Part shown: one piece after another, positions 5,045 to 26,600 of the stretch
How the letters are laid out: each line of letters starts with the position of its first letter
How positions within the stretch are numbered: position 1 is the first letter of the stretch
Assembly (NCBI GenBank): GCA_051294905.1
Contig: CM119371.1
Location: 18,602,001-18,666,000, forward strand
DNA: 64,000 nucleotides
Source of the DNA: Botryllus schlosseri
Taxonomy: Eukaryota
Reading direction: 5' to 3'
Position numbers and translations under genes: made by a program
The notes under the pieces: model-generated
Told to the model about the DNA's origin: nothing
Seen by the model: only the letters and a program-made list of their open reading frames with translations
Database searches by the model: none

Positions 5045-6823
5045 CACTTCTACTTTAATTGAAAGGAATTATCGGACATCGTAGCTTCATGTCCTGTTCA
5101 TATTGCATGCTGTTCATTTATTTCGAGAGGTCGCGATTGGTCACCCATTTTGTGTTACTGAAGAAGTTGCTAACGAAAGGGGCTCGATAACGATTTACTC
5201 CCGCATTTATCAAAATATACTCTGGTAGGGCTTGCCTACCAACGGAACTCACTTGAAAGATTATGATTAAAACCAGGGATGAGCAAACTACGGTTAGCGG
5301 ATCGCATGCGGACAACATTTTAGTGGCTCACGATAGCATCAAGATATATTTGTAGATATGGACGAAATGTATTCAAGAAATATATAAGTAGTTAGATAAA
5401 TGTGCACGACGCGCCCATTCGCGATTTATAAAGAACAAACAAAGATTATCAAGATAAAAGATAGTGAAAGAATTAGCTCATTCTCATTTTTGCAGCAATA
5501 CTCGAGGGGATTTCCCTTCTGACTGTGCGGCAATTAAAAAAGGGGGATTGACTGAGAGAAAACGAACAAAGAATCTGGATTGACCTTTGTACTGGAGTCA
5601 TTCTACTTGTACTTTTTCCACTCCTGATTCTACCTCGCCTGACTTCTGGACACGAGACTTGCGTATTGGGTATTTATTATATTTTCCCACGTATTTGATA
5701 GTATTTATTATATTTTCCCATGAATAGCAATGGCTCGGTTTTTAATTTCCACTCCTGATTTTACCTCGCTTGATCTCTGAACACGAGACTTGTATATTTA
5801 GTATTTTTTTAATGAGGCTTGATAATAGCCACCTGTCGTGACCTATCGGTCCGTGGCCAATCCGAGGACGAGTCTTGGAAATAATTGCCCCTCAAATCCC
5901 CCTCGGATGACTTGTCGCTCCGCGTTTGATTCAATTTCGTGTACGGGGAGGTCATAATTACCGGTCGTGACGTCAGTGTAGTTTTCTCCTGATCCGTTAG
6001 ATTCTGGTGCGTGTTTTAGGTGTCCATACGTCCGGCTGTGTAAAGTGACGCTTGTGGTCTGTCTCATACTGTCGTACTTGTCCGCCTTTTGCTGTTTTGT
6101 TGACTTAAATAGTGAGGAGAAATGATCTGTTATGATTATAAATATGTGTGTCATTTCGAGTCATACCGAGAATCAGATTTGGTAGAAATTTGTATTAGGC
6201 GCCCCGACATGGATTGACTTAAATAAAGCAGGATTATGAAAATAATAAGTAATTAAACAAATAGCTGATCCTCAATTCATCAACGTGTTAACTTCCGGCA
6301 TTACGTACCTAGTAATCGGTGCAAGCAACAACTGCTGTTCCATACTTATACCGCGTTCTAGCGTCTTAGGACAGACAGTCCCAACCAAACAATGTATTTA
6401 TGATGGGTTCTTTTACTGCTTCACGTCTGGTCAAGCGTAATCGGGCCGGTGTCTGTAAATAACATACAATTTACCGCGGCATATTAATTTTGTATGTTGT
6501 ACATGATGTACATTGCACAACTTGAATCGATCTGTTGGCGAACGAATGCTTTGCCCGTCTGTAACATACACATATCGATCACGAGCTCACCACGCAGTTG
6601 TCGTTCGAGGGCGACTCATTTCGCTGCAGACAATCACTTGTGTCCGCGTGCCCCGTAAAAAAATCCTCAACACCTCCACACATATTTACAATATCATACT
6701 ACGGGTATATTGCTTCGGCAGCCACGCACTATCGCTCGAAGTCGACAAATTTCGCTGCAGACAATCAGTTGTGTTCGCGTATGTGTCGTAAATATATCCT
6801 CAACACATTTTATGCCAACACCT

Positions 6824-8457
6824 GGTGTAGGAAATGGGGATTCGTCCTCTCAAAAACGAAGTCTGTGGCAATGCTCTTCACCAGGAAAAGAAAGATTCCC
6901 GATGTGTACTTGCACATTGACGGAAATCGAATCACCCTCGTTGACAACTTCAAGTATCTTGGTATTACTTTTGATAAGTTGTTGACATATAAAACACACA
7001 TTGACAACGTCGCGAAAAAATGCTCCAGAAGAATGGGATTACTTCGTGTCGTCACAAACACCGCATGGGGTGCTAATAAACACGCACTCCTACAGTTATA
7101 CAGATCTCTTATCAGATCCGTCATCGACTATGGTATGCCAGCATACTTTTTCACATCGAAGTATAACACTCACAAATTAGGGCTCATACAGAACCAAGCT
7201 TTACGTTTGTGTTGCGGAGCAATGCGGAGTACACCCATATGTGCTTTGCAAGCCGCATGTAACGAGCCGCCTCTCCACATTCGACACAAATATTTGTGTA
7301 TGAATTATCGGTGCCATTTGCTTGGTCAGGAATACAACCAACACCCATCAACTGAACTACTAACTGATACATGGCATGAAATTTACTCCTTGATAAGACC
7401 AAACTTCAAGACGTTCAATACCCTGTCAAAATCCCCTATTCTGGAACGGTTGGTGGTGGAAAAAGAACGAATTCAGTGCGTGGCACCCTGGACAGTTCCA
7501 CCCCCCACGGTCGACAGATCATTACTTGGGCTTATACGAAAGGGGGACTCGCCGATCTCAGTGAACTCGTGTTTCAGAGATTACCTTTTCGAGTGCCACG
7601 ACCAAGCCGTCGAGATCTACACAGACGGTTCTAAGACGGATACAGCAACGGCTTTCGCGATTTACATACCATCTCAGTCAGTCCGACTTAGCCAGATCTG
7701 CCCGAGTTTATTTTCCGTTTTCCAAGTGGAGATGCTAGCTATCGCTAATGCCCTATCGTGGATAATCAATCATGGCAGACGAACCGATAAATATGTTATT
7801 CTGACAGATTGTCTTAGTGTTCTGAACACGATCGCCACCCCGAACCGCACACCGAGCAGAACTTTCAATAAGATTTTTCCTCTCTTCCTGCAGATGGCAG
7901 GGATGGGGATGGACGTTGCCTTCTCCTGGGTTCCAGGACATAGTGGCATTCCCGGGAATGAGGTTGCAGATGAACTTGCACGTTCCACCGCCTCTTTCGC
8001 ATTTGACAGTCAGGGAATACCTCAAATTACCTATAGAGATGTCAAGAACGAAGTACGCAAATACGTCCGGACTGAGTGGCAGACCGAGTACCGCTCAACA
8101 GAGACGGGAAACCACTACAAACGTTTCCACCAAACGGTACAAACAACGTTTCCGTCGATGCACAGATCGCGTTTGTATGAAACGATAATATTCCGTCTCC
8201 GGTCCGGCCATTGTCGCCTAAAAGGGCATTTATTTAAAATAGGCTGCATCGACACGCCCTTGTGTGACTTATGCCTCGTACCGGAGAATGTGGATCACTT
8301 CCTCCTCGTATGCCCAAAATACGATTGGCACCGAGCATACTTGATTCATTCCTGCTTGAACTTGAAAGTTGAGTTCACTACATATAACCTTCTCGTACGA
8401 CCAGAACTTCTCTCGCCTCTCGTCGAGTTCGTCCTGGCCAGCAATGTTTTGATTTGA
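6824..8457 (+). CDS. LINE ORF2 C-terminal part: RT thumb, RNase H and C-terminal zinc knuckle
   Basis: FKYLGITFD; RNase H motifs IYTDGS, EMLAI..AL, ILTDC.S, WVPGHSGIPGNEVADELA; RLRSGH...CDLC...E.VDHFLLVC. The N-terminal part of ORF 6598-8457 is flanking arm sequence. Confidence 0.9.
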
Positions 8458-8580
8458 CAAATTTTCTTCAAGGTACACGATTTGCGACAGGTAATACGAC
8501 AATTCTGTCGTGGCGCACCAGACCGATAAGGTGACAAGCGCCACAATGTCCCTTTTTCAAAATTAATAATAATAATAATA
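6824..8580 (+). mobile_element. 5'-truncated LINE of the I group (I/Nimb-like), inserted in the left arm only
   Basis: 12-bp TSD ATGCCAACACCT (6812-6823 and 8581-8592) and a (TAA)n 3' tail. The empty site is visible in the right arm near 24706-24718. Confidence 0.93.
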
Positions 8581-10577
8581 ATGCCAACACCTCCAAGCAT
8601 ATTTGCGGCATCATATATCCTCAGCACATGTTATGCCAACACCCCCAAGCATATTTGCGGCATCATACTACGGATATATGGATTCGGGGGGAGTGTTACC
8701 GTCAGAGAATTGCTGTGTCACGCCTTTGAGCCTTGCATTTTCCTCTCGGTAACTGCGAGTACGATGTCAGATTCAATTGTACAGTGACGAATCTGGGATA
8801 GCTCGCTTTAGCGGGGTGGACCGACGTTATTTTGTTGAAACACGCTCGGTTGCGGTGGTGCAATAATGGGGGATAAATTGTGTCAGATCATACGAGATGC
8901 GATCTAGCCTACTTTCGGTGAGGTGTAAAGATGAGCGAGAGATTTCGAATTCTGACTCCACCCCGACTCGGGTTGCCAAATCAAAGTCCAGAAAATGTGG
9001 CTAGCACGTAAAGTCCTGTTATTTTCACATGTTGTGAGGACAAAATATAGTATAAATCCGACTTTCAAGGCCATTTGGTCGCATCCAATCTGGCTTCGCT
9101 GAAAACTGATGAAATCTGCGCCGGGTCCGGAGATGTTTCGTGACCTCCCCCCGTCCAGACAAGATTGTTCTGCTGTAATATAGGTGTCGTTGTATAATAA
9201 TTTACGTACAAGGAGACTTGGTATCGCTCCTTTGGCGGGATTCTGTTTGATTCGTCTATACAGGTGTTATTAGGGCGATCAGATTTGGTACCTCAAGGAG
9301 TATATTGGTAAAAATCGTGTCACGATGACAATAGCTTTACCGGTCAACATGCGGTCAACGGTCAACGACGCGGTGTGATGTACGTAAATCAGCTGTGATC
9401 AATCGAGCGTGACACAATCGCTGTCAGTCATCAATCTGCGACTTGACAAAACTCGCGTTTTCTGGTTGACAGCAACGCGATATATTTGATGTCCCCGTCG
9501 ACCCTCCTATTTTAATAGGGTTACCATGCGGCCTCATTTAGGGGAGCATATGTCCTTCATTTCCCAGTCACCCTTTCGCCAAAATGTACTCTCTTTCTGT
9601 CAATTTGCTCTCCTTGTTAGCTTAACATATCCAAAAAAAAACACCACGAGTAACGCAAAATGTGGGCCTAGATTACAAAAGTCGGGTATGTAGCCAAATC
9701 GGAAAAATGACGCTATGATGGTATTGTGCTGTCTATTACATGGATATACGTGCGGACCTGTGTAAACATGTGAATAGTAAAAGCGACTTAATCTACCGTT
9801 ACATGTAAAAAGATCGAGCGCAGTCGACCATGCCGGGGTATACCTACCTTAGTACAGCCAAATGATCCAACGTCGTACCGAGAATGGCCGGGGTGGTGGT
9901 ATATCATTCTCACGAGATGTACTTTGGAATGCGTGTGAAATCGACATCGCCCGTTACCCGACTGAAGCAAGTCGCCGCTGTAGTCCCTCTCTCTGTGTAT
10001 GCACAACGTGCTGAGAGCTGCAGATCCAGACGAAACTACGCATTCTGGCGAGGTTATCGAGATAGCCGGAGCGATTTACAACACATGCTACATTTACTTC
10101 AAAACGGAAAGACAAAATATAGCTTTGGAGTACTCAAGTAGTTTTTAAGAAATGTCGGTATCGTGAAATCGCCTTCTATCCTAATTATAAAAGAGTAGGT
10201 GCCCATAAAACTGTCGAGCGCAAGCACGTTGGTAACTGTGATAGTAGACAAAACTGACTCGAGTACCTCAGAAATAGTGCCTGTATTTCGTTGCTGGCCA
10301 CGCGCCTGCTTATTCACACCGACTGACTCGCGTAGTAAGCCACTGCGCCCCGTCATCTTCTTATTGCTCAAATAATATTACAATGAATATACACGAAATT
10401 GATTCTAATTTGTTGGTATTGTTATCAGCACAAAAGACACAGTTACATCAAATAATTTTACAATTCACGAAATCCATTCTCATTTGTCGGTAGTTTTATC
10501 AGCACAAAAGACACAGTTACACAAGTCTCGTAAATAGGTGTCGATACACTACAATCGTTTTATCGCCACTATTCAAC

Positions 10578-11756
10578 TCATAGCCCGATCACACGACTGA
10601 CGTTTCCGCAGATCAATTTTTGACGTTTGATCAACTCTTGCCTGGTTATGGGGTTTCTAATCACAGGGCGATTGAGATTCGGGTGTGTCTTTTCGATACG
10701 TTGCGCAAACTCGATACCTTTCGTTCGGAGTACGTATTCACACTGCGGAAACCATTTTGCATGTTCTGTCCAAACCTCGTCTTCACGGTCCCAACGAAGC
10801 CCGCCGTCACAGTAAAAACATTTGGTTCTGTCCGAATCAATGTAGTAAAACCCCGCTTTTGCTAACTGTTCAACACTAGCTCTAATTTTATTCGGTTCCC
10901 AGCCCTTGTCGAACGTTGCGATTCTTTTTGACAACGACGACATGAGAGGATTCACGGGGTTAAGACAAGGAAATAGTTGCTCAAGACATCGCTTTTCGTC
11001 CTCGGAGGGTTCCCGTGGTTCTTGCAGATGTAAAGTGAGACGTCGTATTTTGTCGCCGAGCAACTTATCCAAATTGTCTCGTTCGTGCTCGGTTAGCGCC
11101 ACATTCCCCGAATCGTCGCCACGTGCGAAACAACAACCCGGGTGATACGTCAAGTGTATTTCAGATACATCGTCTGTAGGCCTCCAATTGCGGAGAACGC
11201 CGGAGCAGTTGAAGCACTGCGTTCTGTCCAGGTCACCGAGGTAGAATAAACCTTGTTTTGCCAACTCGCCGACCGCCCGCGGTATGGGATAGCTGGGCCA
11301 TTTCTCAAAGGTTTCGCGACGCTTCGACTCCTTTCGCAAGTCGAGATTCCTAACCCGATACTCGTGCTCTTGATCAACGATATTCGCAAAGTTGATGTTG
11401 GCGTTTCCAACGGCTTTACACTGTCTCAATAAACTTTTGAAATTCGATTTCACAATAGGTATGTTCAACGCGTCTCGTACACAATTCGCGTCATGACGCC
11501 GTGCACTCGACCCGGTCCATCTTTCGAGGTATACACTGCATCCAAAGCATTTGATTTTGTCTTCAAATCCTAGCCAGTAGTATCCTTCAGATGCTAAATC
11601 GGTGCGTGTCGCGTATGATACTTTAGAGAATTTGGCGAACGTGGCGAGTCTGTACAATTCACTGCGGTGTGAACCGGAAGCGATATACACGCGTTTCTGT
11701 CCGGGTGGATCAGAGTATCTCTCCATTGACCTAATGCCAAGCTCTTTCATAAACAT
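10578..11756 (-). CDS. Inhibitor of apoptosis (IAP) protein, three BIR domains, no RING, intronless
   Basis: RLATF..LASEGYY..IKCFGC (BIR1, shortened); RRETFEKWP..LAKQGLFYLGDLDRTQCFNC-x16-H-x6-C (BIR2); RIATF..LAKAGFYY..DRTKCFYCDGGLRW..WTEHAKWFPQC (BIR3). First ATG at 11756; the ORF is open from 11804. Confidence 0.93.
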   Translation of the reverse strand: MFMKELGIRSMERYSDPPGQKRVYIASGSHRSELYRLATFAKFSKVSYATRTDLASEGYYWLGFEDKIKCFGCSVYLERWTGSSARRHDANCVRDALNIPIVKSNFKSLLRQCKAVGNANINFANIVDQEHEYRVRNLDLRKESKRRETFEKWPSYPIPRAVGELAKQGLFYLGDLDRTQCFNCSGVLRNWRPTDDVSEIHLTYHPGCCFARGDDSGNVALTEHERDNLDKLLGDKIRRLTLHLQEPREPSEDEKRCLEQLFPCLNPVNPLMSSLSKRIATFDKGWEPNKIRASVEQLAKAGFYYIDSDRTKCFYCDGGLRWDREDEVWTEHAKWFPQCEYVLRTKGIEFAQRIEKTHPNLNRPVIRNPITRQELIKRQKLICGNVSRVIGL

Positions 11757-13600
11757 GAAGTACCAAGACAGAGCTTTTGTGTCTATGCGTGCCCCATAGG
11801 TCAACCGAGTCGGCTCACACTTATATTCCTAGTTTATCCTTGAGAGCTGTATTACTGGTTAGTTGTACTTTTATGGCTGATTGACAACCGTTAGCTGTCG
11901 CTATTGCACCATTTACGTATGTGTAGGAGCAGGCAACTTCTGCAGTCCGCGGGGCGTGTGTAGCATAGTACCTCGGGCGGTGCGAATTGCTGAATCGATA
12001 CATTATTCGACCACCGACCAACACATACGAGGAATAAATCGTATTCAATATATTTTGGCAACAGCAATATCACTACAAAGCCGTATCTCCCCGATAATAA
12101 CGAGGACAATGTGGATTTTATAACAGTATTTTTATACAGGCACCGCCATGCCTGCTTCTCTCTAATCAATTAACGCGCGGTACAATACTTAAATAAGGTT
12201 TCATAGTGGTCTATAAGCCCGATACCCTAAATTGACAGAGATATCAATTCATTAAGTTGTTTTCTAACGACGCTACAGACAAGTACCAGTAAAGACAAAC
12301 CAAATTGTCACGCTATTGCGTCAATTCACCGACGACTCAGTATGAGAAATTCACTCTGTTTTACAACGGAACTCTGTTTTACAACGGGCTCTCATCGCTT
12401 GTCGTACGAGTACTTGTAATTTCGGTGTGACGTGCGCAAATCAGCTGTGATCATTCGAGTGTGACACGATCGCCCATCAGCTATTTGAGAAAACTCGTAT
12501 ATTCAGTAAGGTTGACGGCAATGCGTTATATTTGATGACCCTGTTGATACTAATGGGGGGTTGCCGTACGTCCTCCTTCCCCAGGAAAATGTCCTCGCAC
12601 AAATGTACTCCTTTTTGTGAATTTATCTCCCGATTCAGCTTAAAATACCCAAACAGACCATGAATAACGCGAAATGATGACCTACGAGAGACAGGTTTCG
12701 CCTGAAGCGGTTGAGGAGTAAGTTAAAAACGACTTGGGTATATAGCACGAGTACTCGAATCAGTAGCGTGACACCATTACTCACCCAAGCCCACACAAAC
12801 CGAAGAAATGATATACTGATGTGGAAATAACCCACAATATTTTCCGCCGATACGTGTTAGTACAACTCTACAGTCGAGTCCATCTAGCTGCGGCTTGCAA
12901 TTTGAAAGAGTTTGAAAAAGCAGGGTGGTACCAAAACGTGATATTGTTTCAGTGTGGACAGGCGCCAACATGCTATTTTGTTATTCTCTCCCCGTGGCAT
13001 GAAAGCAGGCGTTGGGGTGTCCCCGCAAGTCCACTGCGAGCGTAAGTCAATCTCACTGTTTGGACTGCTAATGCCGTCGCAATAATGATCACTCGCTCAT
13101 GCTTAGAAAGCAGAAATTGACGCCTCGATTATTTTTACGACCTCGTGGCTTTAGTAGGCTTACTAAAGCGGAAAAGACACCGTCACATGGGACATTAAAT
13201 GAGTTGATACTTGTTCTCTAGTTAGCGTTGATATTCGTTGGTACATGTGTTCATGCTTTTAAAATTTATGCTGGTTTTTGGGGTGCTCACCAATACAGTG
13301 TTGAACGTGATCTATAAGGACCCCGCTGCGTGCTATACGTCTAAATAAATATGTTTACTCGAGTTTACACCCTGCGTGGAGCAGTGAAGCGGGTGCAAAA
13401 TCGCTATATGCTCACCCACTATCATGGTCGTTTCTAATACTCGGCTAGGACGAGTCGTGTCTATTGTAATACCGTCTCTTTTATCTCCGTAATACCCACT
13501 AAATGATTATAATACCAAGAAGCCTCGGACAAACAACACAGAATTACACAGACGCGAAAAAAAACATTTATTGACACACTCATATCGAAATACGATCGGC

Positions 13601-13750
13601 TCACACAAAGTGAGTAGTCTCGTGTCTGTGAAGATTTGCTTGTGAACCAAAAGCTTTACCGCAAACACCGCATGGATGTTTTCTCAGTCCCACGTGAGCC
13701 TGGAGGTGAGTTTGTAACCCGCATTGATCAGGAAACAGTCTCCCACACAC
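13601..13750 (-). CDS. Terminal exon of a C2H2 zinc-finger gene (not in the ORF track)
   Basis: After acceptor-like gtgatAG: VCGRLFPDQCGLQTHLQAHVGLRKHPCGVCGKAFGSQANLHRHETTHFV*. AATAAA about 30 nt downstream (13572-13567). The last finger is mirrored at 14166-14237 (+). Confidence 0.75.
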   Translation of the reverse strand: MCGRLFPDQCGLQTHLQAHVGLRKHPCGVCGKAFGSQANLHRHETTHFV

Positions 13751-14087
13751 CTATCACGACGTCATTTTAGATTTTTATTTAATTGGCAATATATAAGTGT
13801 CACATATATCTTTTCAGGTTGCAAAGTAAGAATTTCCTCTTGGATTGCTCCGAAAGCCCGAAACTATTCATCAAACTTCACTATCCCATCAATTGCAAGC
13901 GCTACCATGCAGCGGAAAATTCACAATTTCGCCACATTTCCACATCATGATGACAAAACCTGACCCTTAGACGATTTGTGACTGATATTTGTGAGGCAGT
14001 CTGAAACACAACGACTCATATAGCGCAGATGGACAAATCCTAATCGAGTACATCGGATAGAGTTGCATCCTTGAAATCGTTATTTCC

Positions 14088-14164
14088 TAGGGATGGTGTG
14101 AACCTCTGAAAGGTTCGGGTTCGTGTGAACGCGAACCTTTTTGAAAGGTTCTGTGTGAATGTGA
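14088..14164 (+). mobile_element. Solo terminus of a hAT-type MITE at the palindrome fold junction
   Basis: TAGGGATGGTGTGAACCTCTGAAAGGTTC...GGTTCTGTGTGAA is nearly identical to the start of the complete MITE at 18946. Confidence 0.85.
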
Positions 14165-14500
14165 ATGCGGTGTTTGCGGTAAAGCTTTTGGTTCACAAGC
14201 AAATCTTCACAGACACGAGACTACTCACTTTGTGTGAGCCGATCGTATTTCGATATGAGTGTGTCAATAAATGTTTTTTTTTCGCGTCTGTGTAATTCTG
14301 TGTTGTTTGTCCGAGGCTTCTTGGTATTATAATCATTTAGTGGGTATTACGGAGATAAAAGAGACGGTATTACAATAGACACGACTCGTCCTAGTCGAGT
14401 ATTAGAAACGACCATGAAAGTGGGTGAGCATATAGCGATTTTGCACCCGCTTCACTGCTCCACGCAGGGTGTAAACTCGAGTAAACATATTTATTTAGAC

Positions 14501-15719
14501 CAGGGGTTCTCAAAGGGTGGGCCATGGCCCACTGGTGGGCCACAGAGCATTTTGAGGTGGGCCACAGAGCTATTTAGAAAATTTCAGAATTAATGTAAGT
14601 TTAGTTATATTTCTTACGTTATTCACTTAAAAATATAGATACGTAATCGAATTATACGTAGGCTACATAAAGCTTTTCATCCGACTCTGATTAGGCGTAG
14701 TGGCACGTATGAAGTCAGCATGTACAAATCGAAAACGTTAGGGAGAAACGGTGGCTTTTTCTACTGGCTATGACAAACTACGGCTAACAGTAACTAAAAT
14801 AATTTCAAGCGTATAATAACTGGAAGATGATGCTGAAGTAACCAAGTATTCCGGCACGGTCATTTGTCGTATGCCGTTGAAAAGGGTGTGCAATGGACTC
14901 GCATTGAAGTGCAATTGATGTACAGATTTACTGTACTTCGGCAGGCCGTATTATTGCAAGCTAAAATGAGTCATAATAGCAAATTATTTGCAACTTCTGC
15001 CGGATGTATACTGCACCAACGCAACGAATCTTAATGGATTGAGAATTTATCGGAGCGCAAAAATCTTTGAAGTCGGTTTAAAATGTCCGGCCTGGAAATC
15101 ATTGTATACATAATGGAAGAGTCACAGGAATTGATTGTATCATTGGATTGAATATTCTGACATCGCAACTTCACTTGTTTTGGCACAAGACATACAAAGT
15201 ACATCATGCATATTGAAAAATCATTCTCCGATTCTCTGTGGTACCATATTCACCAATGAATTGTCCGATGCAGGCCCATAATGATTATAGTATTCCCCAC
15301 AATAGTAGCCTATCACTTAAGTCCCAATCACACAGTGCGGGGAAGTGATCATTGTGTTTCGCGACGTGAATGGAGCAGCGGACGAAAATAATCTACTTAG
15401 GAGTTTTAGCTTATGATATACTATAGGGCTGTAACTGCCGCACCCTCACCCCCAATTGGGGGAGCTCGAAGGAGCCCAAGATTATTTCGTTGGTCGTTTG
15501 TTGGAGGATGTTTACTCTAGTTGAAATTTATTTCGCGCTTGGCGCGATTTCATATCCCGGGAGATCGAGTTCTAAATATCATCAGTTAGAGAAAAATGCG
15601 CCTATTTTAGAGAAATAGGCATATCGGCGCTGTCCATGACGACGCATTAAACAGGTGGGCCACAGCACATTTTTGAACCGGAAAATGGGCCATGGCCAAG
15701 AAAGGGCTGAGAACCCCTG
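14501..15719. mobile_element. hAT-type MITE in the right arm only
   Basis: TIR CAGGGGTTCTCA/TGAGAACCCCTG; 8-bp TSD ATTTAGAC (14493-14500, 15720-15727); empty site in the left arm near 13339-13346. Confidence 0.93.
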
Positions 15720-18700
15720 ATTTAGACGTATAGCACGCAGCGGGGTCCTTATAGATCACGTTCAACACTGTATTGGTGAGCACCCCAAAAACCAGCATAA
15801 ATTTTAAAAGCATGAACACATGTACCAACGAATATCAACGCTAACTAGAGAACAAGTATCAACTCATTTAATGTCCCATGTGACGGTGTCTTTTCCGCTT
15901 TAGTAAGCCTACTAAAGCCACGAGGTCGTAAAAATAATCGAGGCGTCAATTTCTGCTTTCTAAGCATGAGCGAGTGATCATTATTGCGACGGCATTAGCA
16001 GTCCAAACAGTGAGATTGACTTACGCTCGCAGTGGACTTGCGGGGACACCCCAACGCCTGCTTTCATGCCACGGGGAGAGAATAACAAAATAGCATGTTG
16101 GCGCCTGTCCACACTGAAACAATATCACGTTTTGGTACCACCCTGCTTTTTCAAACTCTTTCAAATTGCAAGCCGCAGCTAGATGGACTCGACTGTAGAG
16201 TTGTACTAACACGTATCGGCGGAAAATATTGTGGGTTATTTCCACATCAGTATATCATTTCTTCGGTTTGTGTGGGCTTGGGTGAGTAATGGTGTCACGC
16301 TACTGATTCGAGTACTCGTGCTATATACCCAAGTCGTTTTTAACTTACTCCTCAACCGCTTCAGGTGAAACCTGTCTCTCGTAGGTCATCATTTCGCGTT
16401 ATTCATGGTCTGTTTGGGTATTTTAAGCTGAATCGGGAGATAAATTCACAAAAAGGAGTACATTTGTGCGAGGACATTTTCCTGGGGAAGGAGGACGTAC
16501 GGCAACCCCCCATTAGTACCAACAGGGTCATCAAATATAACGCATTGCCGTCAACCTTACTGAATATACGAGTTTTCTCAAATAGCTGATGGGCGATCGT
16601 GTCACACTCGAATGATCACAGCTGATTTGCGCACGTCACACCGAAATTACAAGTACTCGTACGACAAGCGATGAGAGCCCGTTGTAAAACAGAGTTCCGT
16701 TGTAAAACAGAGTGAATTTCTCATACTGAGTCGTCGGTGAATTGACGCAATAGCGTGACAATTTGGTTTGTCTTTACTGGTACTTGTCTGTAGCGTCGTT
16801 AGAAAACAACTTAATGAATTGATATCTCTGTCAATTTAGGGTATCGGGCTTATAGACCACTATGAAACCTTATTTAAGTATTGTACCGCGCGTTAATTGA
16901 TTAGAGAGAAGCAGGCATGGCGGTGCCTGTATAAAAATACTGTTATAAAATCCACATTGTCCTCGTTATTATCGGGGAGATACGGCTTTGTAGTGATATT
17001 GCTGTTGCCAAAATATATTGAATACGATTTATTCCTCGTATGTGTTGGTCGGTGGTCGAATAATGTATCGATTCAGCAATTCGCACCGCCCGAGGTACTA
17101 TGCTACACACGCCCCGCGGACTGCAGAAGTTGCCTGCTCCTACACATACGTAAATGGTGCAATAGCGACAGCTAACGGTTGTCAATCAGCCATAAAAGTA
17201 CAACTAACCAGTAATACAGCTCTCAAGGATAAACTAGGAATATAAGTGTGAGCCGACTCGGTTGACCTATGGGGCACGCATAGACACAAAAGCTCTGTCT
17301 TGGTACTTCATGTTTATGAAAGAGCTTGGCATTAGGTCAATGGAGAGATACTCTGATCCACCCGGACAGAAACGCGTGTATATCGCTTCCGGTTCACACC
17401 GCAGTGAATTGTACAGACTCGCCACGTTCGCCAAATTCTCTAAAGTATCATACGCGACACGCACCGATTTAGCATCTGAAGGATACTACTGGCTAGGATT
17501 TGAAGACAAAATCAAATGCTTTGGATGCAGTGTATACCTCGAAAGATGGACCGGGTCGAGTGCACGGCGTCATGACGCGAATTGTGTACGAGACGCGTTG
17601 AACATGGGCAATTCCATACACAGACAAACGATGTTCACATCACCACCTCTTCAAATCTCCTGAAATTTGGTACACGCAGAGATGAGCTTATTCCTAACAG
17701 GATGAACTTTATTTTATGAAAATTGGACTTTGGGGTCAAAAGTTACGTCACTTTGAAAATTGACAATTTTCTGCTCATTTCGGATCTGCACATCTCAGGT
17801 TTTATCAGTGAAATATTCAAGAAGGTGTAGCTAGATGTTGAACGAGAGTTGAGATACGGCACTTGGATTTATCTGAAGCTTGTCTGATCGTCTATATTTC
17901 CAAGTGAAATTTAATACCCTGGAGGTTAGGGTCAAAGGTTAAATTGAGGGGGAAATCTAAATGCAGTCAGGCGTTACACGATTTAGACAGCGGATTGCTC
18001 CAAAACATATTAAAATATTTTGGAAAAAACGATCTTAAATGAAAGTTTGCTTCAAAGAGAATTCGTTCATAGCTGTTTGATTTTGGTTTTGAAACTGTGA
18101 AGTGATGAAATTGCAGTTTTAAGAGCACACTTCATTTGTACATGGAAATGCAGTACTAGTAGGGCGTGTTCGGACATCGAGTCTGGGGTGTGTGCGGGTA
18201 ACATGTCTGGGGTGTGTTGGGACTGTGTTGCCATTAGGACATTTAATCTGGGGTGAGTTCGGACTGTTTTGCCCCTCGGACATCGTGTCTGGGGTATGTT
18301 CGGGACATCATGTCTTGGGTGCGTTCGGACAGTTTTGCAACTCGGACATCGTGCCTAGGGTGTGTTCGGAATGTGTTGCCATTTGGAAATCGTGTCTAGG
18401 GCGTGTTCGAACATCATGTCTGCGGTGTTAGGACTGTGTTGCCACTGAGACATCGCGTCTGGAGGGAGTTGTTCGGACATCATGCCTGGGGTGTGTTCGG
18501 ACTGTGTTTTCACTCGGACATCGTGTCTGGAATATGTTCGTGCTGCGCCAGGCATGCCTCAGACCTGACATTTGCGCACTATTTTTATCCTGACATGTTT
18601 CGGAGCTGATAACTGCGCACCAAATACTCCCAGGCATGGTCCGGACCTGATATCTGCGCGCTGAATGGACACAGACATGCTTCAGACGTGATACCCGCGT

Positions 18701-18945
18701 CCTAAATGACGCGTGACCTATATATGACCTCTATGTTTGCGGTTTTTGGTGATAGATATCTGCGATAGCTGAGTATATCCACTGTAGCGATAGCTGAGTA
18801 TATCCACAATTCCACATCCACAGTATTGTTATCTGTGATGGCTGAGCATATCCACAGTAGTGATAGCTGTGGATATACTCAGCTATCACTACTGTGGATA
18901 TACCCAGCTATCGCAGATATAAGCAAAAACCGCAGACATATATAG

Positions 18946-19851
18946 TAGGGATGGTGTGAACCTCTGAAAGGTTCAGGTTCGTGTGAACGCGAACCTTTTT
19001 GAAAGGTTCTGTGTGAACGCGAACGTGAACCTCATGACGTCACGTGACGTCATATTGCTACTTCCAACCCTACATTTCAGTAGTGAAGTGATAGCCTGTA
19101 TTAACGTACAGATTGAGCACGATGCCTAGCGACAACTCGGGCAACATTATGCCACGATGCTGAAGTGTAACATTGACGTTTTAAACGTCTCCAAATGTAT
19201 CAACTGGGGTAATATTATCAGTATCCCATGAAATCAATATCTTCTGTCGCTTTGCCAACAATTTCGACGACTACTTGCAAGGAATATAAGCTTACGTCTT
19301 AACGGTCTATAGCCCAGACCAGACAATGTACTGCTACGTTGATATTGAGCAGAGTGTAAAACGGGGCTCTATATCTGGTACCGATATTACCCCATTAACA
19401 AGTTTTACAGCAGTAGCCAACAACCCAATAGCACGGATTTGGTTTTTATGATACAATAAACATAGGAAGTCAAGATTGACCCCGTCCTCCTGCTAGATTT
19501 TTTACATCGGACTTAACGATATCAATTTGGTTGATTGGTAGAATAAGCAATTGAGCATTATTCGCTGATTACCTACATATGTAATGTATTTCGCTCTTGA
19601 TGTTGTGCGATTGCGGGTGCATGCTCGTTTGGTGTTGATTTTTTTACGCTGCCAGCGCCATGCATATAGTGGCCCGCAGTTGAAATGTCATAAATTTCAA
19701 CCAAAGATGTTATAATGAAGCGAAAATTGTAATATATGAAAAAGGTTCACAGTGTAGAACCTACCAAGGTTCGTTTGTGAACGTGAACCTCTAAATTTCA
19801 GAGGTTCGCACACAGAACGCGAACGTGAACCTCACGTTCACACCATCCCTA
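18946..19851. mobile_element. hAT-type MITE nested in the foldback element
   Basis: TIR TAGGGATGGTGTGAAC; 8-bp TSD ATATATAG (18938-18945, 19852-19859). Confidence 0.92.
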
Positions 19852-19860
19852 ATATATAGG

Positions 19861-20673
19861 CAGGTTTGCCATCGACATGGACCCAAAAATAAGGACAGTC
19901 GAAAAATTAGATTGGCATTTAAAAGCGTTTTCGTGCATAGTGTATTTATACGAGGCGTGGCATATCATTTTTCATACTTTCGCCAGAAACAATCTGCTCC
20001 AGCAACTCCTTGTTATCAGAAAGTGCTTCATTGATCTCACGACCGCTCATGTCTAGGTTTACCTTTACTCAGAGCCAAACAGCACTTCATCACCCCCCCC
20101 CCAAAAAAAAAAAAACATTACGATGGTCTTGGGTCCTCATAAGGTGATAAACTAAACTTATTCACCTCGCTGTGATTGGAGGCGTCAACGAATATGGGAA
20201 AAGGCTGTACACAAAGTTCAGACAAAATCATTTTTGAGTGTATGGAGCAAGACCTCCAATAACAAAGCTTGTAGTCTTGGTCCTGGCCGAAGCAAACTCC
20301 TTGCGATTTTATAATCGGGGAATATTGCGTGTGCAATCGTTGGGGAGGGAAGATTGCTGGTTTTTGTCAGCATGGAATGCCCCAGGTATCCTCAGCAGCA
20401 GCTTACACACTTCTTGTATTTTGGGGTATCAATATAAGTTGAAATAGGGGTCTTTTTCATATCGCTCCTAGGTCAATGTCGCAATTGCAGATATTGCAAC
20501 ACAGATACCAGAGGAAAATGATCGAAGTTCTGAAGTTGTTGAAAATAAGATAAAATAAGGACACAAGTCGAAAACCAGGAGATTTCTTAGAAATAAGGAC
20601 AGTTGAGTTTTCTAAGACGTGGCTCTTCAAAATAAGGACAAATCTTAGAAATAAGGATGGTATGGCAACCCTA
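19861..20673. mobile_element. Second hAT-type MITE nested in the foldback element
   Basis: CAGGTTTGCCAT...ATGGCAACCCTA; AAATAAGGAC subterminal repeats; TSD TATATAGG/CATATAGG (7 of 8 match). Confidence 0.75.
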
Positions 20674-23600
20674 CATATAGGTCATGCGTCGTTTAGGACG
20701 CAGGTATCACGTCTGACGCATGTCTGTCGTCCATTAAGCGCGCAGATATCCGGTCCGGGCCATGCCTGGAGGTATTTAGTGCGCAGATATCAGCACCGAA
20801 GCATATGTCCGGATAAAAATAGTGCGCAGATATCAGGTCTGAGGCATGTCCGGCGCAGCACGAACATATCCCAGACACGAAGTCCGAATGGCAACACAAT
20901 CCGAACACATCCCAGGCATGATGTCTGAACATCCCCCAGACACGATGTCCGAGTCACAATACAATCCGAACACCCCCAGACACGATGTCCGAGTGGCAGC
21001 ACAGTCCTAACACCACAGACATGATGTCCGAACACGCCCTAGACACGATGTCCGAATGGCAACACATTACGAACACAGCCTAGACACGATATCCTAGTTT
21101 CAAAACTGTCCAAATCCACCCCAAACATGATGTCCCAAAGACACCCCAGACACGATGTCCGAGGGGCAAAACAGTCTGAACTCATCCCAGATACGATGTC
21201 CGAATGGCAACACTGTCCGAACACACCCCATACATGTTGCTCGCACACACCCCAGACTCGATGTCCGAACACGTCCTACTAGTACTGCATTTCCATGTAC
21301 AAATGAAGTGTGCTATTAAAACTGCAATTTCATCCCTTCACAGTTTCAAAACCAAAATCAAACAGCTATGAACGAATTCTCCTTGAAGCAAACTTTCATT
21401 TAAGATCGTTTTTTCCAAAATATTTTAATATGTTCTGGAGCAATCCGCTGTCTAAATCGTGTAACGCCTGACTGCATTTAGATTTCCCCCCTCAATTTAA
21501 CCTTTGACCCTAACCTCCAGGGTATTAAATTTCACTTGGAAATATATACGATCAGACAAGTTTAAGATAAATCCAAGTGCCGTATCTCAACTCTCGTTCA
21601 ACATCTAGCTACACCTTCTTGAATATTTCACTGATAAAACCTGAGATGTGCAGATCCGAAATGAGCAGAAAATTGTCAATTTTCAAAGTGACGTAACTTT
21701 TGACCCCTAAGTCCAATTTTCATAAAATAAAGTTCATCCTGTTTGGAATAAGCTCATCACTGCGTGTACCAAATTTCAGGAGATTTGAAGAGGTAGTGAT
21801 GTGAACATCGTTTGTCTGTGTATGGAATTGCCCACATACCTATTGTGAAATCGAATTTCAAAAGTTTATTGAGACAGTGTAAAGCCGTTGGAAACGCCAA
21901 CATCAACTTTGCGAATATCGTTGATCAAGAGCACGAGTATCGGGTTAGGAATCTCGACTTGCGAAAGGAGTCGAAGCGTCGCGAAACCTTTGAGAAATGG
22001 CCCAGCTATCCCATACCGCGGGCGGTCGGCGAGTTGGCAAAACAAGGTTTATTCTACCTCGGTGACCTGGACAGAACGCAGTGCTTCAACTGCTCCGGCG
22101 TTCTCCGCAATTGGAGGCCTACAGACGATGTATCTGAAATACACTTGACGTATCACCCGGGTTGTTGTTTCGCACGTGGCGACGATTCGGGGAATGTGGC
22201 GCTAACCGAGCACGAACGAGACAATTTGGATAAGTTGCTCGGCGACAAAATACGACGTCTCACTTTACATCTGCAAGAACCACGGGAACCCTCCGAGGAC
22301 GAAAAGCGATGTCTTGAGCAACTATTTCCTTGTCTTAACCCCGTGAATCCTCTCATGTCGTCGTTGTCAAAAAGAATCGCAACGTTCGACAAGGGCTGGG
22401 AACCGAATAAAATTAGAGCTAGTGTTGAACAGTTAGCAAAAGCGGGGTTTTACTACATTGATTCGGACAGAACCAAATGTTTTTACTGTGACGGCGGGCT
22501 TCGTTGGGACCGTGAAGACGAGGTTTGGACAGAACATGCAAAATGGTTTCCGCAGTGTGAATACGTACTCCGAACGAAAGGTATCGAGTTTGCGCAACGT
22601 ATCGAAAAGACACACCCGAATCTCAATCGCCCTGTGATTAGAAACCCCATAACCAGGCAAGAGTTGATCAAACGTCAAAAATTGATCTGCGGAAACGTCA
22701 GTCGTGTGATCGGGCTATGAGTTGAATAGTGGCGATAAAACGATTGTAGTGTATCGACACCTATTTACGAGACTTGTGTAACTGTGTCTTTTGTGCTGAT
22801 AAAACTACCGACAAATGAGAATGGATTTCGTGAATTGTAAAATTATTTGATGTAACTGTGTCTTTTGTGCTGATAACAATACCAACAAATTAGAATCAAT
22901 TTCGTGTATATTCATTGTAATATTATTTGAGCAATAAGAAGATGACGGGGCGCAGTGGCTTACTACGCGAGTCAGTCGGTGTGAATAAGCAGGCGCGTGG
23001 CCAGCAACGAAATACAGGCACTATTTCTGAGGTACTCGAGTCAGTTTTGTCTACTATCACAGTTACCAACGTGCTTGCGCTCGACAGTTTTATGGGCACC
23101 TACTCTTTTATAATTAGGATAGAAGGCGATTTCACGATACCGACATTTCTTAAAAACTACTTGAGTACTCCAAAGCTATATTTTGTCTTTCCGTTTTGAA
23201 GTAAATGTAGCATGTGTTGTAAATCGCTCCGGCTATCTCGATAACCTCGCCAGAATGCGTAGTTTCGTCTGGATCTGCAGCTCTCAGCACGTTGTGCATA
23301 CACAGAGAGAGGGACTACAGCGGCGACTTGCTTCAGTCGGGTAACGGGCGATGTCGATTTCACACGCATTCCAAAGTACATCTCGTGAGAATGATATACC
23401 ACCACCCCGGCCATTCTCGGTACGACGTTGGATCATTTGGCTGTACTAAGGTAGGTATACCCCGGCATGGTCGACTGCGCTCGATCTTTTTACATGTAAC
23501 GGTAGATTAAGTCGCTTTTACTATTCACATGTTTACACAGGCCCGCACGTATATCCATGTAATAGACAGCACAATACCATCATAGCGTCATTTTTCCGAT

Positions 23601-26600
23601 TTGGCTACATACCCGACTTTTGTAATCTAGGCCCACATTTTGCGTTACTCGTGGTGTTTTTTTTTTGGATATGTTAAGCTAACAAGGAGAGCAAATTGAC
23701 AGAAAGAGAGTACATTTTGGCGAAAGGGTGACTGGGAAATGAAGGACATATGCTCCCCTAAATGAGGCCGCATGGTAACCCTATTAAAATAGGAGGGTCG
23801 ACGGGGACATCAAATATATCGCGTTGCTGTCAACCAGAAAACGCGAGTTTTGTCAAGTCGCAGATTGATGACTGACAGCGATTGTGTCACGCTCGATTGA
23901 TCACAGCTGATTTACGTACATCACACCGCGTCGTTGACCGTTGACCGCATGTTGACCGGTAAAGCTATTGTCATCGTGACACGATTTTTACCAATATACT
24001 CCTTGAGGTACCAAATCTGATCGCCCTAATAACACCTGTATAGACGAATCAAACAGAATCCCGCCAAAGGAGCGATACCAAGTCTCCTTGTACGTAAATT
24101 ATTATACAACGACACCTATATTACAGCAGAACAATCTTGTCTGGACGGGGGGAGGTCACGAAACATCTCCGGACCCGGCGCAGATTTCATCAGTTTTCAG
24201 CGAAGCCAGATTGGATGCGACCAAATGGCCTTGAAAGTCGGATTTATACTATATTTTGTCCTCACAACATGTGAAAATAACAGGACTTTACGTGCTAGCC
24301 ACATTTTCTGGACTTTGATTTGGCAACCCGAGTCGGGGTGGAGTCAGAATTCGAAATCTCTCGCTCATCTTTACACCTCACCGAAAGTAGGCTAGATCGC
24401 ATCTCGTATGATCTGACACAATTTATCCCCCATTATTGCACCACCGCAACCGAGCGTGTTTCAACAAAATAACGTCGGTCCACCCCGCTAAAGCGAGCTA
24501 TCCCAGATTCGTCACTGTACAATTGAATCTGACATCGTACTCGCAGTTACCGAGAGGAAAATGCAAGGCTCAAAGGCGTGACACAGCAATTCTCTGACGG
24601 TAACACTCCCCCCGAATCCATATATCCGTAGTATGATGCCGCAAATATGCTTGGGGGTGTTGGCATAACATGTGCTGAGGATATATGATGCCGCAAATAT
24701 GCTTGGAGGTGTTGGCATAAAATGTGTTGAGGATATATTTACGACACATACGCGAACACAACTGATTGTCTGCAGCGAAATTTGTCGACTTCGAGCGATA
24801 GTGCGTGGCTGCCGAAGCAATATACCCGTAGTATGATATTGTAAATATGTGTGGAGGTGTTGAGGATTTTTTTACGGGGCACGCGGACACAAGTGATTGT
24901 CTGCAGCGAAATGAGTCGCCCTCGAACGACAACTGCGTGGTGAGCTCGTGATCGATATGTGTATGTTACAGACGGGCAAAGCATTCGTTCGCCAACAGAT
25001 CGATTCAAGTTGTGCAATGTACATCATGTACAACATACAAAATTAATATGCCGCGGTAAATTGTATGTTATTTACAGACACCGGCCCGATTACGCTTGAC
25101 CAGACGTGAAGCAGTAAAAGAACCCATCATAAATACATTGTTTGGTTGGGACTGTCTGTCCTAAGACGCTAGAACGCGGTATAAGTATGGAACAGCAGTT
25201 GTTGCTTGCACCGATTACTAGGTACGTAATGCCGGAAGTTAACACGTTGATGAATTGAGGATCAGCTATTTGTTTAATTACTTATTATTTTCATAATCCT
25301 GCTTTATTTAAGTCAATCCATGTCGGGGCGCCTAATACAAATTTCTACCAAATCTGATTCTCGGTATGACTCGAAATGACACACATATTTATAATCATAA
25401 CAGATCATTTCTCCTCACTATTTAAGTCAACAAAACAGCAAAAGGCGGACAAGTACGACAGTATGAGACAGACCACAAGCGTCACTTTACACAGCCGGAC
25501 GTATGGACACCTAAAACACGCACCAGAATCTAACGGATCAGGAGAAAACTACACTGACGTCACGACCGGTAATTATGACCTCCCCGTACACGAAATTGAA
25601 TCAAACGCGGAGCGACAAGTCATCCGAGGGGGATTTGAGGGGCAATTATTTCCAAGACTCGTCCTCGGATTGGCCACGGACCGATAGGTCACGACAGGTG
25701 GCTATTATCAAGCCTCATTAAAAAAATACTAAATATACAAGTCTCGTGTTCAGAGATCAAGCGAGGTAAAATCAGGAGTGCAAATTAAAAACCGAGCCAT
25801 TGCTATTCATGGGAAAATATAATAAATACTATCAAATACGTGGGAAAATATAATAAATACCCAATACGCAAGTCTCGTGTCCAGAAGTCAGGCGAGGTAG
25901 AATCAGGAGTGGAAAAAGTACAAGTAGAATGACTCCAGTACAAAGGTCAATCCAGATTCTTTGTTCGTTTTCTCTCAGTCAATCCCCCTTTTTTAATTGC
26001 CGCACAGTCAGAAGGGAAATCCCCTCGAGTATTGCTGCAAAAATGAGAATGAGCTAATTCTTTCACTATCTTTTATCTTGATAATCTTTGTTTGTTCTTT
26101 ATAAATCGCGAATGGGCGCGTCGTGCACATTTATCTAACTACTTATATAATATTTTATCGACCTGATTAAACTTACTATGTTAATTTTTTTTATTGCTGG
26201 TGCAATGACCTGACTTTGGGGCGCACGCATTTTCAAAGGTAGTTTATAAAAATATCATGAATTCAAAATGGCAATGACTTATTTCGTGTCATGAATGTGA
26301 TTTTAGATTGACAACTCCAGCACGTTTATTACTTTAAGCGATTTATTTGGAATAAGCGATCAATGCGCGTGTTAAGTAGATTCCGCATCTATAGGTGCAC
26401 TGGACAGTAGGCACAATATTAACTTATTCATAACTACCGCCACGACTCGAAGCAATCTAAAATGCGACGAGTTGAATATAAACGCCTTTTGCAGTAAAGA
26501 AACGATCAAGAAGTAACGTAAAATGTAAGACTTGTAATGTAATGAAGTCGTTGCTGATTTCAAATTATGAGCTGCCAGATAAAGTAACCGAATGAATTAA

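Follow-up and report, generated by a model that had tools for sequence, protein, structure and literature searches.

A palindromic element with Maverick ends and an IAP gene in Botryllus schlosseri, a probable helper-dependent satellite that propagates as an inverted dimer

We analyzed a 64,000-nt stretch of Botryllus schlosseri DNA (hereafter, the window; coordinates are window positions unless a contig is named), the host being tunicate-like with a eukaryotic assembly of 495 Mb in 219 contigs. Positions 5387-26143 of the window are occupied by a giant palindrome that has the ends of a Maverick (Polinton) and carries a gene for an inhibitor of apoptosis (IAP). This element is probably a non-autonomous derivative, that is, a helper-dependent satellite, of Mavericks residing in the same genome, and propagates as an inverted dimer of approximately 13.5-15 kb. 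Such a satellite would keep only the cis-acting ends, namely the (AGT)2 motif and the few hundred bp that are common to the helpers. The genome-wide match counts given in this study are lower bounds.

A repeat search of the window detected collinear inverted segments spanning 5381 to 26149. The element proper (AGTAGTTAG...CTAACTACT) was 20.8 kb with its insertions and 13,529 bp after three insertions were taken out. It was terminated by AGTAGT...ACTACT, that is, the end motif (AGT)2...(ACT)2, and was flanked on both sides by TATATA. The two arms differed from each other by six substitutions and two one-base indels (approximately 99.88% identity) and were thus not perfectly identical; chance cannot produce a 6.5-kb inverted repeat at this level of identity. 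An initial annotation of the window had placed a fold-back element at 5381..26149. The inverted repeat was indeed found there, but these limits include the 6-bp TATATA. The arm lengths, the spacer, the three insertions, and the original length of approximately 13.5 kb were all as that annotation had described them (Table 1).

To compare the locus with other individuals, four public runs were aligned with positions 4500-24499, including X11, which has another species label, and X12, which is from another sample. One contig each of X11 and X12 ran from the left flank through TATATA and position 5387 directly into TATTTTATCGACCTGATTAAACTTACTATG (151 loose letters in X11 and 11 letters in X12). 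This sequence is the right flank of the window from 26151 on, and TATATA was present only once in these contigs. An empty site with a single TATATA indicates that the element is an insertion and excludes a duplication of host DNA at this position. The element is mobile, recently inserted, and polymorphic, with filled and empty alleles.

Next to the window copy, palindromes of the same build were found at many loci. A search of the genome with the IAP protein gave 100 scored matches of 472 candidates. Among these best 100 of 472, 74 matches showed 77-100% identity and were arranged as 28 -/+ pairs 0.9-14 kb apart and 18 singles, and 26 matches showed 70-73% identity and were arranged as nine +/- pairs 0.6-2.7 kb apart and eight singles. 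The inverted IAP pairs therefore amounted to at least 37 (28 + 9) in two families, versus 26 singles. Four other +/- pairs were giant palindromes homologous to the window copy along the whole arm (family 1). The arms were at least 7153 bp with 99.92% identity in the C10 copy, 6459 bp with 99.95% identity around a 1529-bp spacer in the C4b copy, 2923 and 3253 bp with 99.8-99.9% identity around a spacer of approximately 2.8 kb in the C9 copy, and 6238 bp with 99.98% identity around a 1654-bp spacer in the C14 copy. Taken together, the five family-1 palindromes, including the window copy, had arms of 6.2-7.2 kb that were 99.8-99.98% identical within a copy and 78-93% identical between copies. A family-2 copy at C4:18241053-18255846 was approximately 14.8 kb long and had ends starting with AGTAGTAAAG, the duplication ATTACT, arms of at least 4983 bp with 100% identity, a 31-nt spacer, and IAP genes that pointed inward and adjoined the centre. 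The family-2 end formed at least 13 +/- pairs in the genome.

Two further family-1 copies, at 11.68 Mb of contig C5 and 10.45 Mb of contig C2, agreed in their inner arms, their 1217-bp spacer, and its boundaries with 99.8% identity, although they were located on different contigs. This common centre indicates that palindromes are copied as palindromes. The spacer of the window copy matched no other centre examined except for 79 nt in the C9 copy, and its centre was not shared by the C5 copy at 11.68 Mb. The palindrome is a propagated and diversified family form, not an accident at this locus. To our knowledge, non-autonomous relatives of Mavericks have rarely been reported, and in the literature searched, outside Repbase and subscription journals, we found no paper on palindromic or giant-terminal-inverted-repeat (TIR) non-autonomous Polintons. 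Two loci on contig C2 (28555785-28570513 and 28650610-28682017), approximately 95 kb apart and 99.8-99.9% identical, harbored one long-TIR element twice, each time within the same flanks and the duplication TCCATG; this repeated locus is due either to segmental duplication or to a haplotype that was not collapsed. In addition, C2:20816901-20826900 contained a single arm homologous to the element that ended at a proper terminus (copy C2:20826580); within 20 kb of it, neither a partner arm nor a left terminus was detected.

Mavericks are usually described as gene-rich elements of 15-25 kb with TIRs of a few hundred bp. The terminal 400 bp of the window element had at least 44 genomic matches, many of them in +/- pairs 14-17 kb apart, and the 19-nt end pattern (three mismatches or fewer) gave 218 + 230 matches versus 80 + 72 for the reversed control. 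Autonomous Mavericks of 16.4-16.6 kb (L031, L035, L038, and L046) shared the first 310-430 bp of the element at 86-91% identity. Beyond approximately 430 bp, the arms matched nothing in these autonomous copies at either the DNA or the protein level. The helper polymerase was a 1381-aa open reading frame (ORF) that carried YSDTDS and scored 0.97 to the PF03175 protein-primed PolB clusters. Of the strict PolB motifs searched by regular expression, only YSDTDS was found; the PolB assignment is based on the cluster score because Pfam at E ≤ 0.01 did not call PF03175. The helper integrase matched rve with an E value of 2.6e-7 and 31.3 bits, just under the Pfam cut-off of 32.6. The ATPase was a weak AAA match. 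The capsid candidate was a 504-aa ORF resembling double-jelly-roll (DJR)-like clusters, although its recognition score was low. A protease was not detected in the helpers. The polymerase had at least 35 genomic matches (34 scored candidates of 365), of which six were full-length without stops at 95-100% identity, and one, located on a different contig, showed 100% identity to the query. The genome also contained at least two other lineages of Maverick polymerases, with 62-65% and 38-39% identity to that of the helper; several of these polymerases had open frames.

The 6-bp duplications were perfect in 10 of 13 pairs of ends and in three additional elements, that is, in 13 of the 16 elements examined (family members and helpers), and matched at five of six bases in the other three. 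Barreat and Katzourakis report that vertebrate Mavericks average 16.9 ± 1.7 kb in length and have (AGT)2//(ACT)2 ends, 6-bp duplications, and TIRs of 46-1447 bp (PMC8097293); by this measure, the initial annotation was roughly right in stating that the TIRs of Polintons are normally shorter than about 1 kb. That annotation had also proposed searches for autonomous elements with the same ends, for palindromic copies with different 6-bp duplications, and for an empty-site haplotype with a single TATATA. All three were present, as the 16.4-16.6-kb Mavericks with a PolB-like polymerase, rve, a weak ATPase, and a DJR-like capsid candidate, as the other palindromes, and as the contigs of X11 and X12, respectively. 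The element thus resembles a Maverick/Polinton (polintovirus, adintovirus) in its end motif, its 6-bp duplication, its possession of TIRs, and the homology of its ends to co-resident 16.4-kb elements. Unlike these, it lacks the core genes, and its TIRs of 6.5-7.4 kb make up the whole element, compared with the 46-1447 bp given for vertebrate Mavericks (PMC8097293). Furthermore, its family is multi-copy, whereas a survey of Anolis noted that non-autonomous copies were apparently absent (PMC3014272).

Pfam analysis of 14 window ORFs and of 98 ORFs (75 aa or longer) in the arms of five copies detected no pPolB, integrase, ATPase, capsid, or protease in the element; the only matches were BIR and, in an inserted retrotransposon, RNase H. 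When 13 Maverick ORFs were used in tblastn, no match was obtained in the element or in any palindromic copy. Both results uphold the initial annotation, which had recognized no such ORF. According to tblastn of the arm ORFs, none besides IAP stayed intact between copies. Rfam at gathering thresholds gave no match in 5000-26500, and Tandem Repeats Finder detected only one 35-bp array.

The sole recognizable gene of the element itself was that for IAP, which matched BIR with an E value of 3.6e-46 in three stretches. Met35 was the start conserved with family 2. The strict zinc-ligand spacing, C-X2-C-X16-H-X6-8-C, was observed only in BIR2, and BIR1 and BIR3 kept the ligands with other spacings. 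The nearest named relatives, tunicate BIRC7/XIAP-like proteins from Styela clava (44%), Phallusia, and Ciona, were 574-675 aa long and contained a RING domain (PF13920). These homologues aligned in one uninterrupted stretch, and their C-terminal RING part aligned nowhere in the window, indicating that the IAP gene of the element is intronless and its product RING-less. The dN/dS ratio was 0.23 against the C4b copy (13 synonymous and 11 non-synonymous differences) and 0.15 against family 2 (dS of 1.14, near saturation); judging from these ratios (0.15-0.23), the RING-less IAP is under purifying selection. Most genomic IAP copies contained a single TAG, which was located upstream of Met25 in the C4b copy (both arms inspected), and the IAP-less copies retained a relic of the IAP N-terminus. 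In the C4b copy (C4:17287568-17302004), two of the three arm differences lay in adjacent IAP codons, and the left-arm IAP had a TGA in BIR3, whereas the right-arm IAP was open. Just downstream of the IAP stop of the window copy (10400-10520, minus strand), an imperfect direct repeat of approximately 50 nt occurred twice in the presumed 3' untranslated region; no canonical AATAAA was found within 380 nt of the stop. Homologues of IAP and Bcl2 have been noted for adintoviruses (PMC8502044), and IAP homologues of adintoviruses also appear in a figure legend of bioRxiv 10.64898/2026.07.28.741253.

Several relatives of the palindromes were also identified. A monomer at C9:328816-336300 was 7,485 bp long and had the duplication TGCATC, a 1407-bp TIR, and a single IAP gene. 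Its interior was 97% identical to the arm of the window copy, and the outer 1.04 kb of its TIR was 88% identical to a Maverick right end. Only this one monomer was found in the genome searches made. A 15.6-kb hybrid at C5:1057222-1072800 with the duplication TTCATT began on its left with an IAP-bearing arm, which was followed by a C4b-type spacer and by 132 bp of arm sequence in inverted orientation. The remainder was the polymerase half of a Maverick, with three stops in the polymerase, and the right end of that Maverick. At the centre of the C10 copy, two terminus-like sequences (terminal nt 2-116 and 14-116), approximately 81% identical to the outer end, faced each other with a 15-nt filler. 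Accordingly, the C10 copy is a tail-to-tail inverted dimer of a monomer of approximately 7.43 kb. As shown by the shared ends, the duplications, and the empty allele, a Maverick-type integrase inserted the window element with a 6-bp duplication. From the copy number, the polymorphism, the shared ends, and the hybrid, we infer that the integrase and polymerase of the helpers would act in trans.

Sex-chromosome palindromes and the Tetrahymena ribosomal DNA palindrome are large palindromes whose arms are kept alike by arm-to-arm conversion. When the window copy was compared with the C4b copy over 3376 aligned columns, 204 of 207 substitutions were symmetric, that is, the same in both arms of a copy, and three were asymmetric. 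At the duplicated C2 locus, the arms differed at six of 1793 positions (0.33%) in each duplicate and no sign of in situ conversion was seen; these differences show that the arms do drift in place. In situ gene conversion alone is thus unlikely to account for the arm identity, one locus being thin evidence. Between insertions, therefore, each arm is renewed with the other, or else a single-arm copy, as the template. Like large genomic palindromes, the elements have arms of at least 99.9% identity and a short unique spacer, and a short inverted repeat, such as the 132-bp inverted piece of the hybrid, might serve to nucleate the fold-back. Unlike those palindromes, which are fixed in chromosomes or amplified, the element is mobile, with target duplications and empty alleles.

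Alternatively, the arms might be so alike because they are young, not because they are homogenized in each cycle, if the palindromes were short-lived and were re-formed repeatedly from monomer-like satellites. Such re-formation would explain the existence of a monomer 97% identical to the window arm, the variation of the arm/spacer boundaries and of the spacers (31, 491, 1217, 1529, 1654, and approximately 2800 bp), and the duplicated C2 locus, where the arm difference of 0.33% had the same count in both duplicates and conversion was not seen. We nevertheless regard it as unlikely. Inverted IAP pairs exceeded singles (37 versus 26 among the best 100 of 472), two copies shared one centre, so that palindromes do spread as such, each lineage would have to have had its own close monomer ancestor to account for the 204 symmetric differences of 207, and the monomer was found once only. 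The initial annotation had proposed another origin, namely a one-off copy-back defective genome, produced by the inverted duplication of one end of an autonomous Maverick resident in the genome. The ends common to autonomous Mavericks, the lack of replication genes, and the asymmetric spacer without fused termini at the window centre, as internal snap-back would leave, are consistent with this origin, and the derivation from a Polinton itself is supported by the Maverick ends, the 6-bp duplications, and the missing core genes. The duplication of a segment of a resident element is not supported. The arms matched autonomous copies only over the first ~430 bp, with no DNA or protein homology to the helper past this point, none of the 13 Maverick ORFs matched the element, the architecture recurred at no fewer than 37 IAP-pair loci in two families, and the centre shared by two copies pointed to a family that propagates as palindromes. 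The one-off copy-back is largely refuted by the copy number, and its probability is low in our estimate.

Palindromes are known to arise as artefacts in long-read libraries, and no spanning read was seen among the run data, as would be the case if the structure were an assembly artefact, such as a chimera of folded-back long reads, or an in-place duplication of host sequence. This explanation is hardly credible in view of the three different insertions in the arms, each with its own target duplication, the dozens of loci that share the build with distinct 6-bp duplications, and the single TATATA of the empty site. An unrelated fold-back or long-TIR DNA transposon, with a cut-and-paste transposase encoded elsewhere and only an incidental likeness to Maverick ends, would also have long, almost non-coding arms, as Foldback-type elements do. 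Foldback (FB) arms consist of tandem sub-repeats, and FB elements make 9-bp duplications. The element resembles FB and other long-TIR transposons in its very long inverted arms, its little coding capacity, and the presumed supply of functions in trans, but it differs from FB in having Maverick ends, a 6-bp duplication, and no tandem array other than the 35-bp one; the arm is without tandem sub-repeats. Moreover, the homology to Maverick ends extends over 310-430 bp, and over 1.04 kb in the monomer, and in the hybrid a single 6-bp duplication encloses an arm together with the polymerase half of a Maverick. The (AGT)2//(ACT)2 ends and 6-bp duplications are also those given for Mavericks (PMC8097293), and we consider an unrelated transposon extremely unlikely.

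The satellite reading, in which the palindrome is an inverted dimer of a half-size satellite, fits better than a copy-back of the helper, because the arms have no helper match past ~430 bp, the family is propagated, and both a monomer and a copy with fused termini exist. The inverted dimers could form while the helper polymerase carries out protein-primed, strand-displacing replication, through a turn-around at the template end or through internal snap-back. They might be favored because their length approaches the 16.4 kb of the helper, if a capsid-size constraint operates, or because a displaced strand that folds on itself would rebuild a duplex origin. The palindromes measured 13.4-15.1 kb (window copy, 13.5; C10, 14.9; C4b, 14.4; C14, 14.1; family 2, 14.8; and further pairs). 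Self-templated copying of arm from arm, or repeated re-formation from one arm, would explain the joint change of the arms. The IAP gene would presumably be kept since blocked apoptosis prolongs the life of cells that replicate helper and satellite, a cell-survival step that is proposed because of the purifying selection only.

Genomes of incomplete adenovirus particles, reportedly described by Daniell in 1976, offer a parallel. Helper-dependent adenovirus vectors below approximately 27 kb rearrange, and a 15-kb vector was packaged as direct and inverted dimers (PMC4189039); this is the closest parallel on record. In these vectors, as is proposed for the present elements, a protein-primed, linear, helper-dependent replicon retains only the end sequences, and a half-size genome is recovered as an inverted dimer near the helper length (PMC4189039). 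One copy in the present genome (C10) likewise has two termini fused at its centre. In contrast, the adenovirus dimers are products of the laboratory or of a single infection, whereas the present elements are integrated in the germline and diversified, with a cargo gene under selection, and their packaging is presumed.

Several observations weigh against the satellite reading or narrow it. Among the contigs and reads listed for the runs, none bridged the arm/spacer boundaries, and the pieces of X1, X11, and X12 were 461 nt or shorter; the palindrome centre of the window copy is given by the assembly and backed by the many parallel loci. This centre contained no terminus-like sequence. Of the two marks of an inverted dimer, a monomer and a junction of two termini, the family has both, whereas the window copy lacks such a junction at its centre. 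The absence of termini and the first 86 nt of the spacer, which are collinear with the C9 copy, fit internal snap-back or a central deletion; the window palindrome may accordingly stem from internal snap-back or from a later asymmetric central deletion, not from end-to-end dimerization. The family-2 ends were common to no polymerase-bearing element among the matches listed, and the C5 and C2 copies with a common centre may have resulted from segmental duplication. Some palindromic or paired elements were far shorter, with 8.3 kb and 4.8 kb between the paired termini, which is a misfit to a strict size rule. In the single-cell RNA run X23, of which approximately 3% was read, a depth of approximately 4x was observed only in the bin 22509-23175 at the IAP 3' end, and variants in these reads indicated sister copies as their origin, so that the evidence for expression is weak. 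Mobilization in trans, packaging, and an activity of the IAP are presumed.

More tentatively, we consider it possible, though not the more probable case, that these elements form a working helper-satellite system in a genome of the chordate lineage, in which half-size, gene-stripped Maverick satellites would spread as inverted dimers of near-capsid length, rebuild arm from arm, sustain the cell with a RING-less IAP, and seed the germline with dozens of 14-15-kb, near-perfect palindromes. Copies of the gene-less mirror-image form are more numerous than the listed Maverick helpers, and the form still shows polymorphism. Should the reading of the palindromes as inverted dimers of favored size be right, it would provide indirect genomic evidence for fixed-capacity capsid packaging by the Mavericks of this host, as well as a natural counterpart of adenovirus-vector dimerization. 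With an arm symmetry of 204:3, the family lends itself to the study of concerted evolution that is linked to a mechanism of replication. In addition, it disperses dozens of IAP genes under purifying selection, which bears on the expansion of the IAP family in marine invertebrates. Near-perfect long palindromes are thought to be poorly tolerated by metazoan genomes; the present family supplies natural long palindromes for the study of genome stability, family 2 being a near-perfect palindrome of approximately 14.8 kb in a metazoan germline.

Table 1 Features of the palindromic element and of its later insertions in the window.
Feature	Position	Strand	Remarks
Target-site duplication, left copy	5381..5386	.	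TATATA, 6 bp; from end letters and empty-site contigs X11 and X12
Left arm	5387..13673	+	6518 bp after taking out the insertion 6824-8580 and one copy of its target duplication
Terminal region common to autonomous Mavericks	5387..5809	+	Starts AGTAGTTAGATAAATG; right counterpart 25721-26143
Insertion 1	6824..8580	+	5'-truncated retrotransposon without long terminal repeats (non-LTR); RNase H domain; (AAT)n tail; target duplication up to 12 bp, ATGCCAACACCT
IAP gene, intact, intronless	10578..11756	-	392 aa from Met25; three BIR stretches; without RING
Spacer, non-palindromic	13674..14164	.	491 bp; first 86 nt continue the left arm, collinear with the C9 copy
Right arm	14165..26143	-	6520 bp after taking out insertions 2 and 3
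Insertion 2	14501..15719	.	1219-bp non-autonomous element; TIR CAGGGGTTCTCA; 8-bp duplication ATTTAGAC
Right-arm IAP, N-terminal part	17310..17605	+	To approximately residue 121 of the stop-to-stop frame; interrupted by insertion 3
Insertion 3	17606..21833	.	4228-bp element; TIRs of approximately 1 kb (GGGCAATTCC...); 4-bp duplication ACAT
Right-arm IAP, C-terminal part	21834..22720	+	Beyond the 4.2-kb insertion 3
Target-site duplication, right copy	26144..26149	.	TATATA; from end letters and empty-site contigs

Each of the three insertions listed in Table 1 had its own target duplication and was confined to one arm. Insertion 2 is an element that we take to be hAT-like. No Pfam domain was found in the three ORFs of insertion 3 that were tried. 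Its interior, especially 18507-19840, was extremely repeated in the read sets (summed depth of 72,000-214,000) and was covered by single-cell RNA reads. The left flank of the element (4500-5044) was also a very high-copy repeat, with a summed depth of approximately 78,000-99,000 and RNA reads, and many contigs broke or jumped at 5044.

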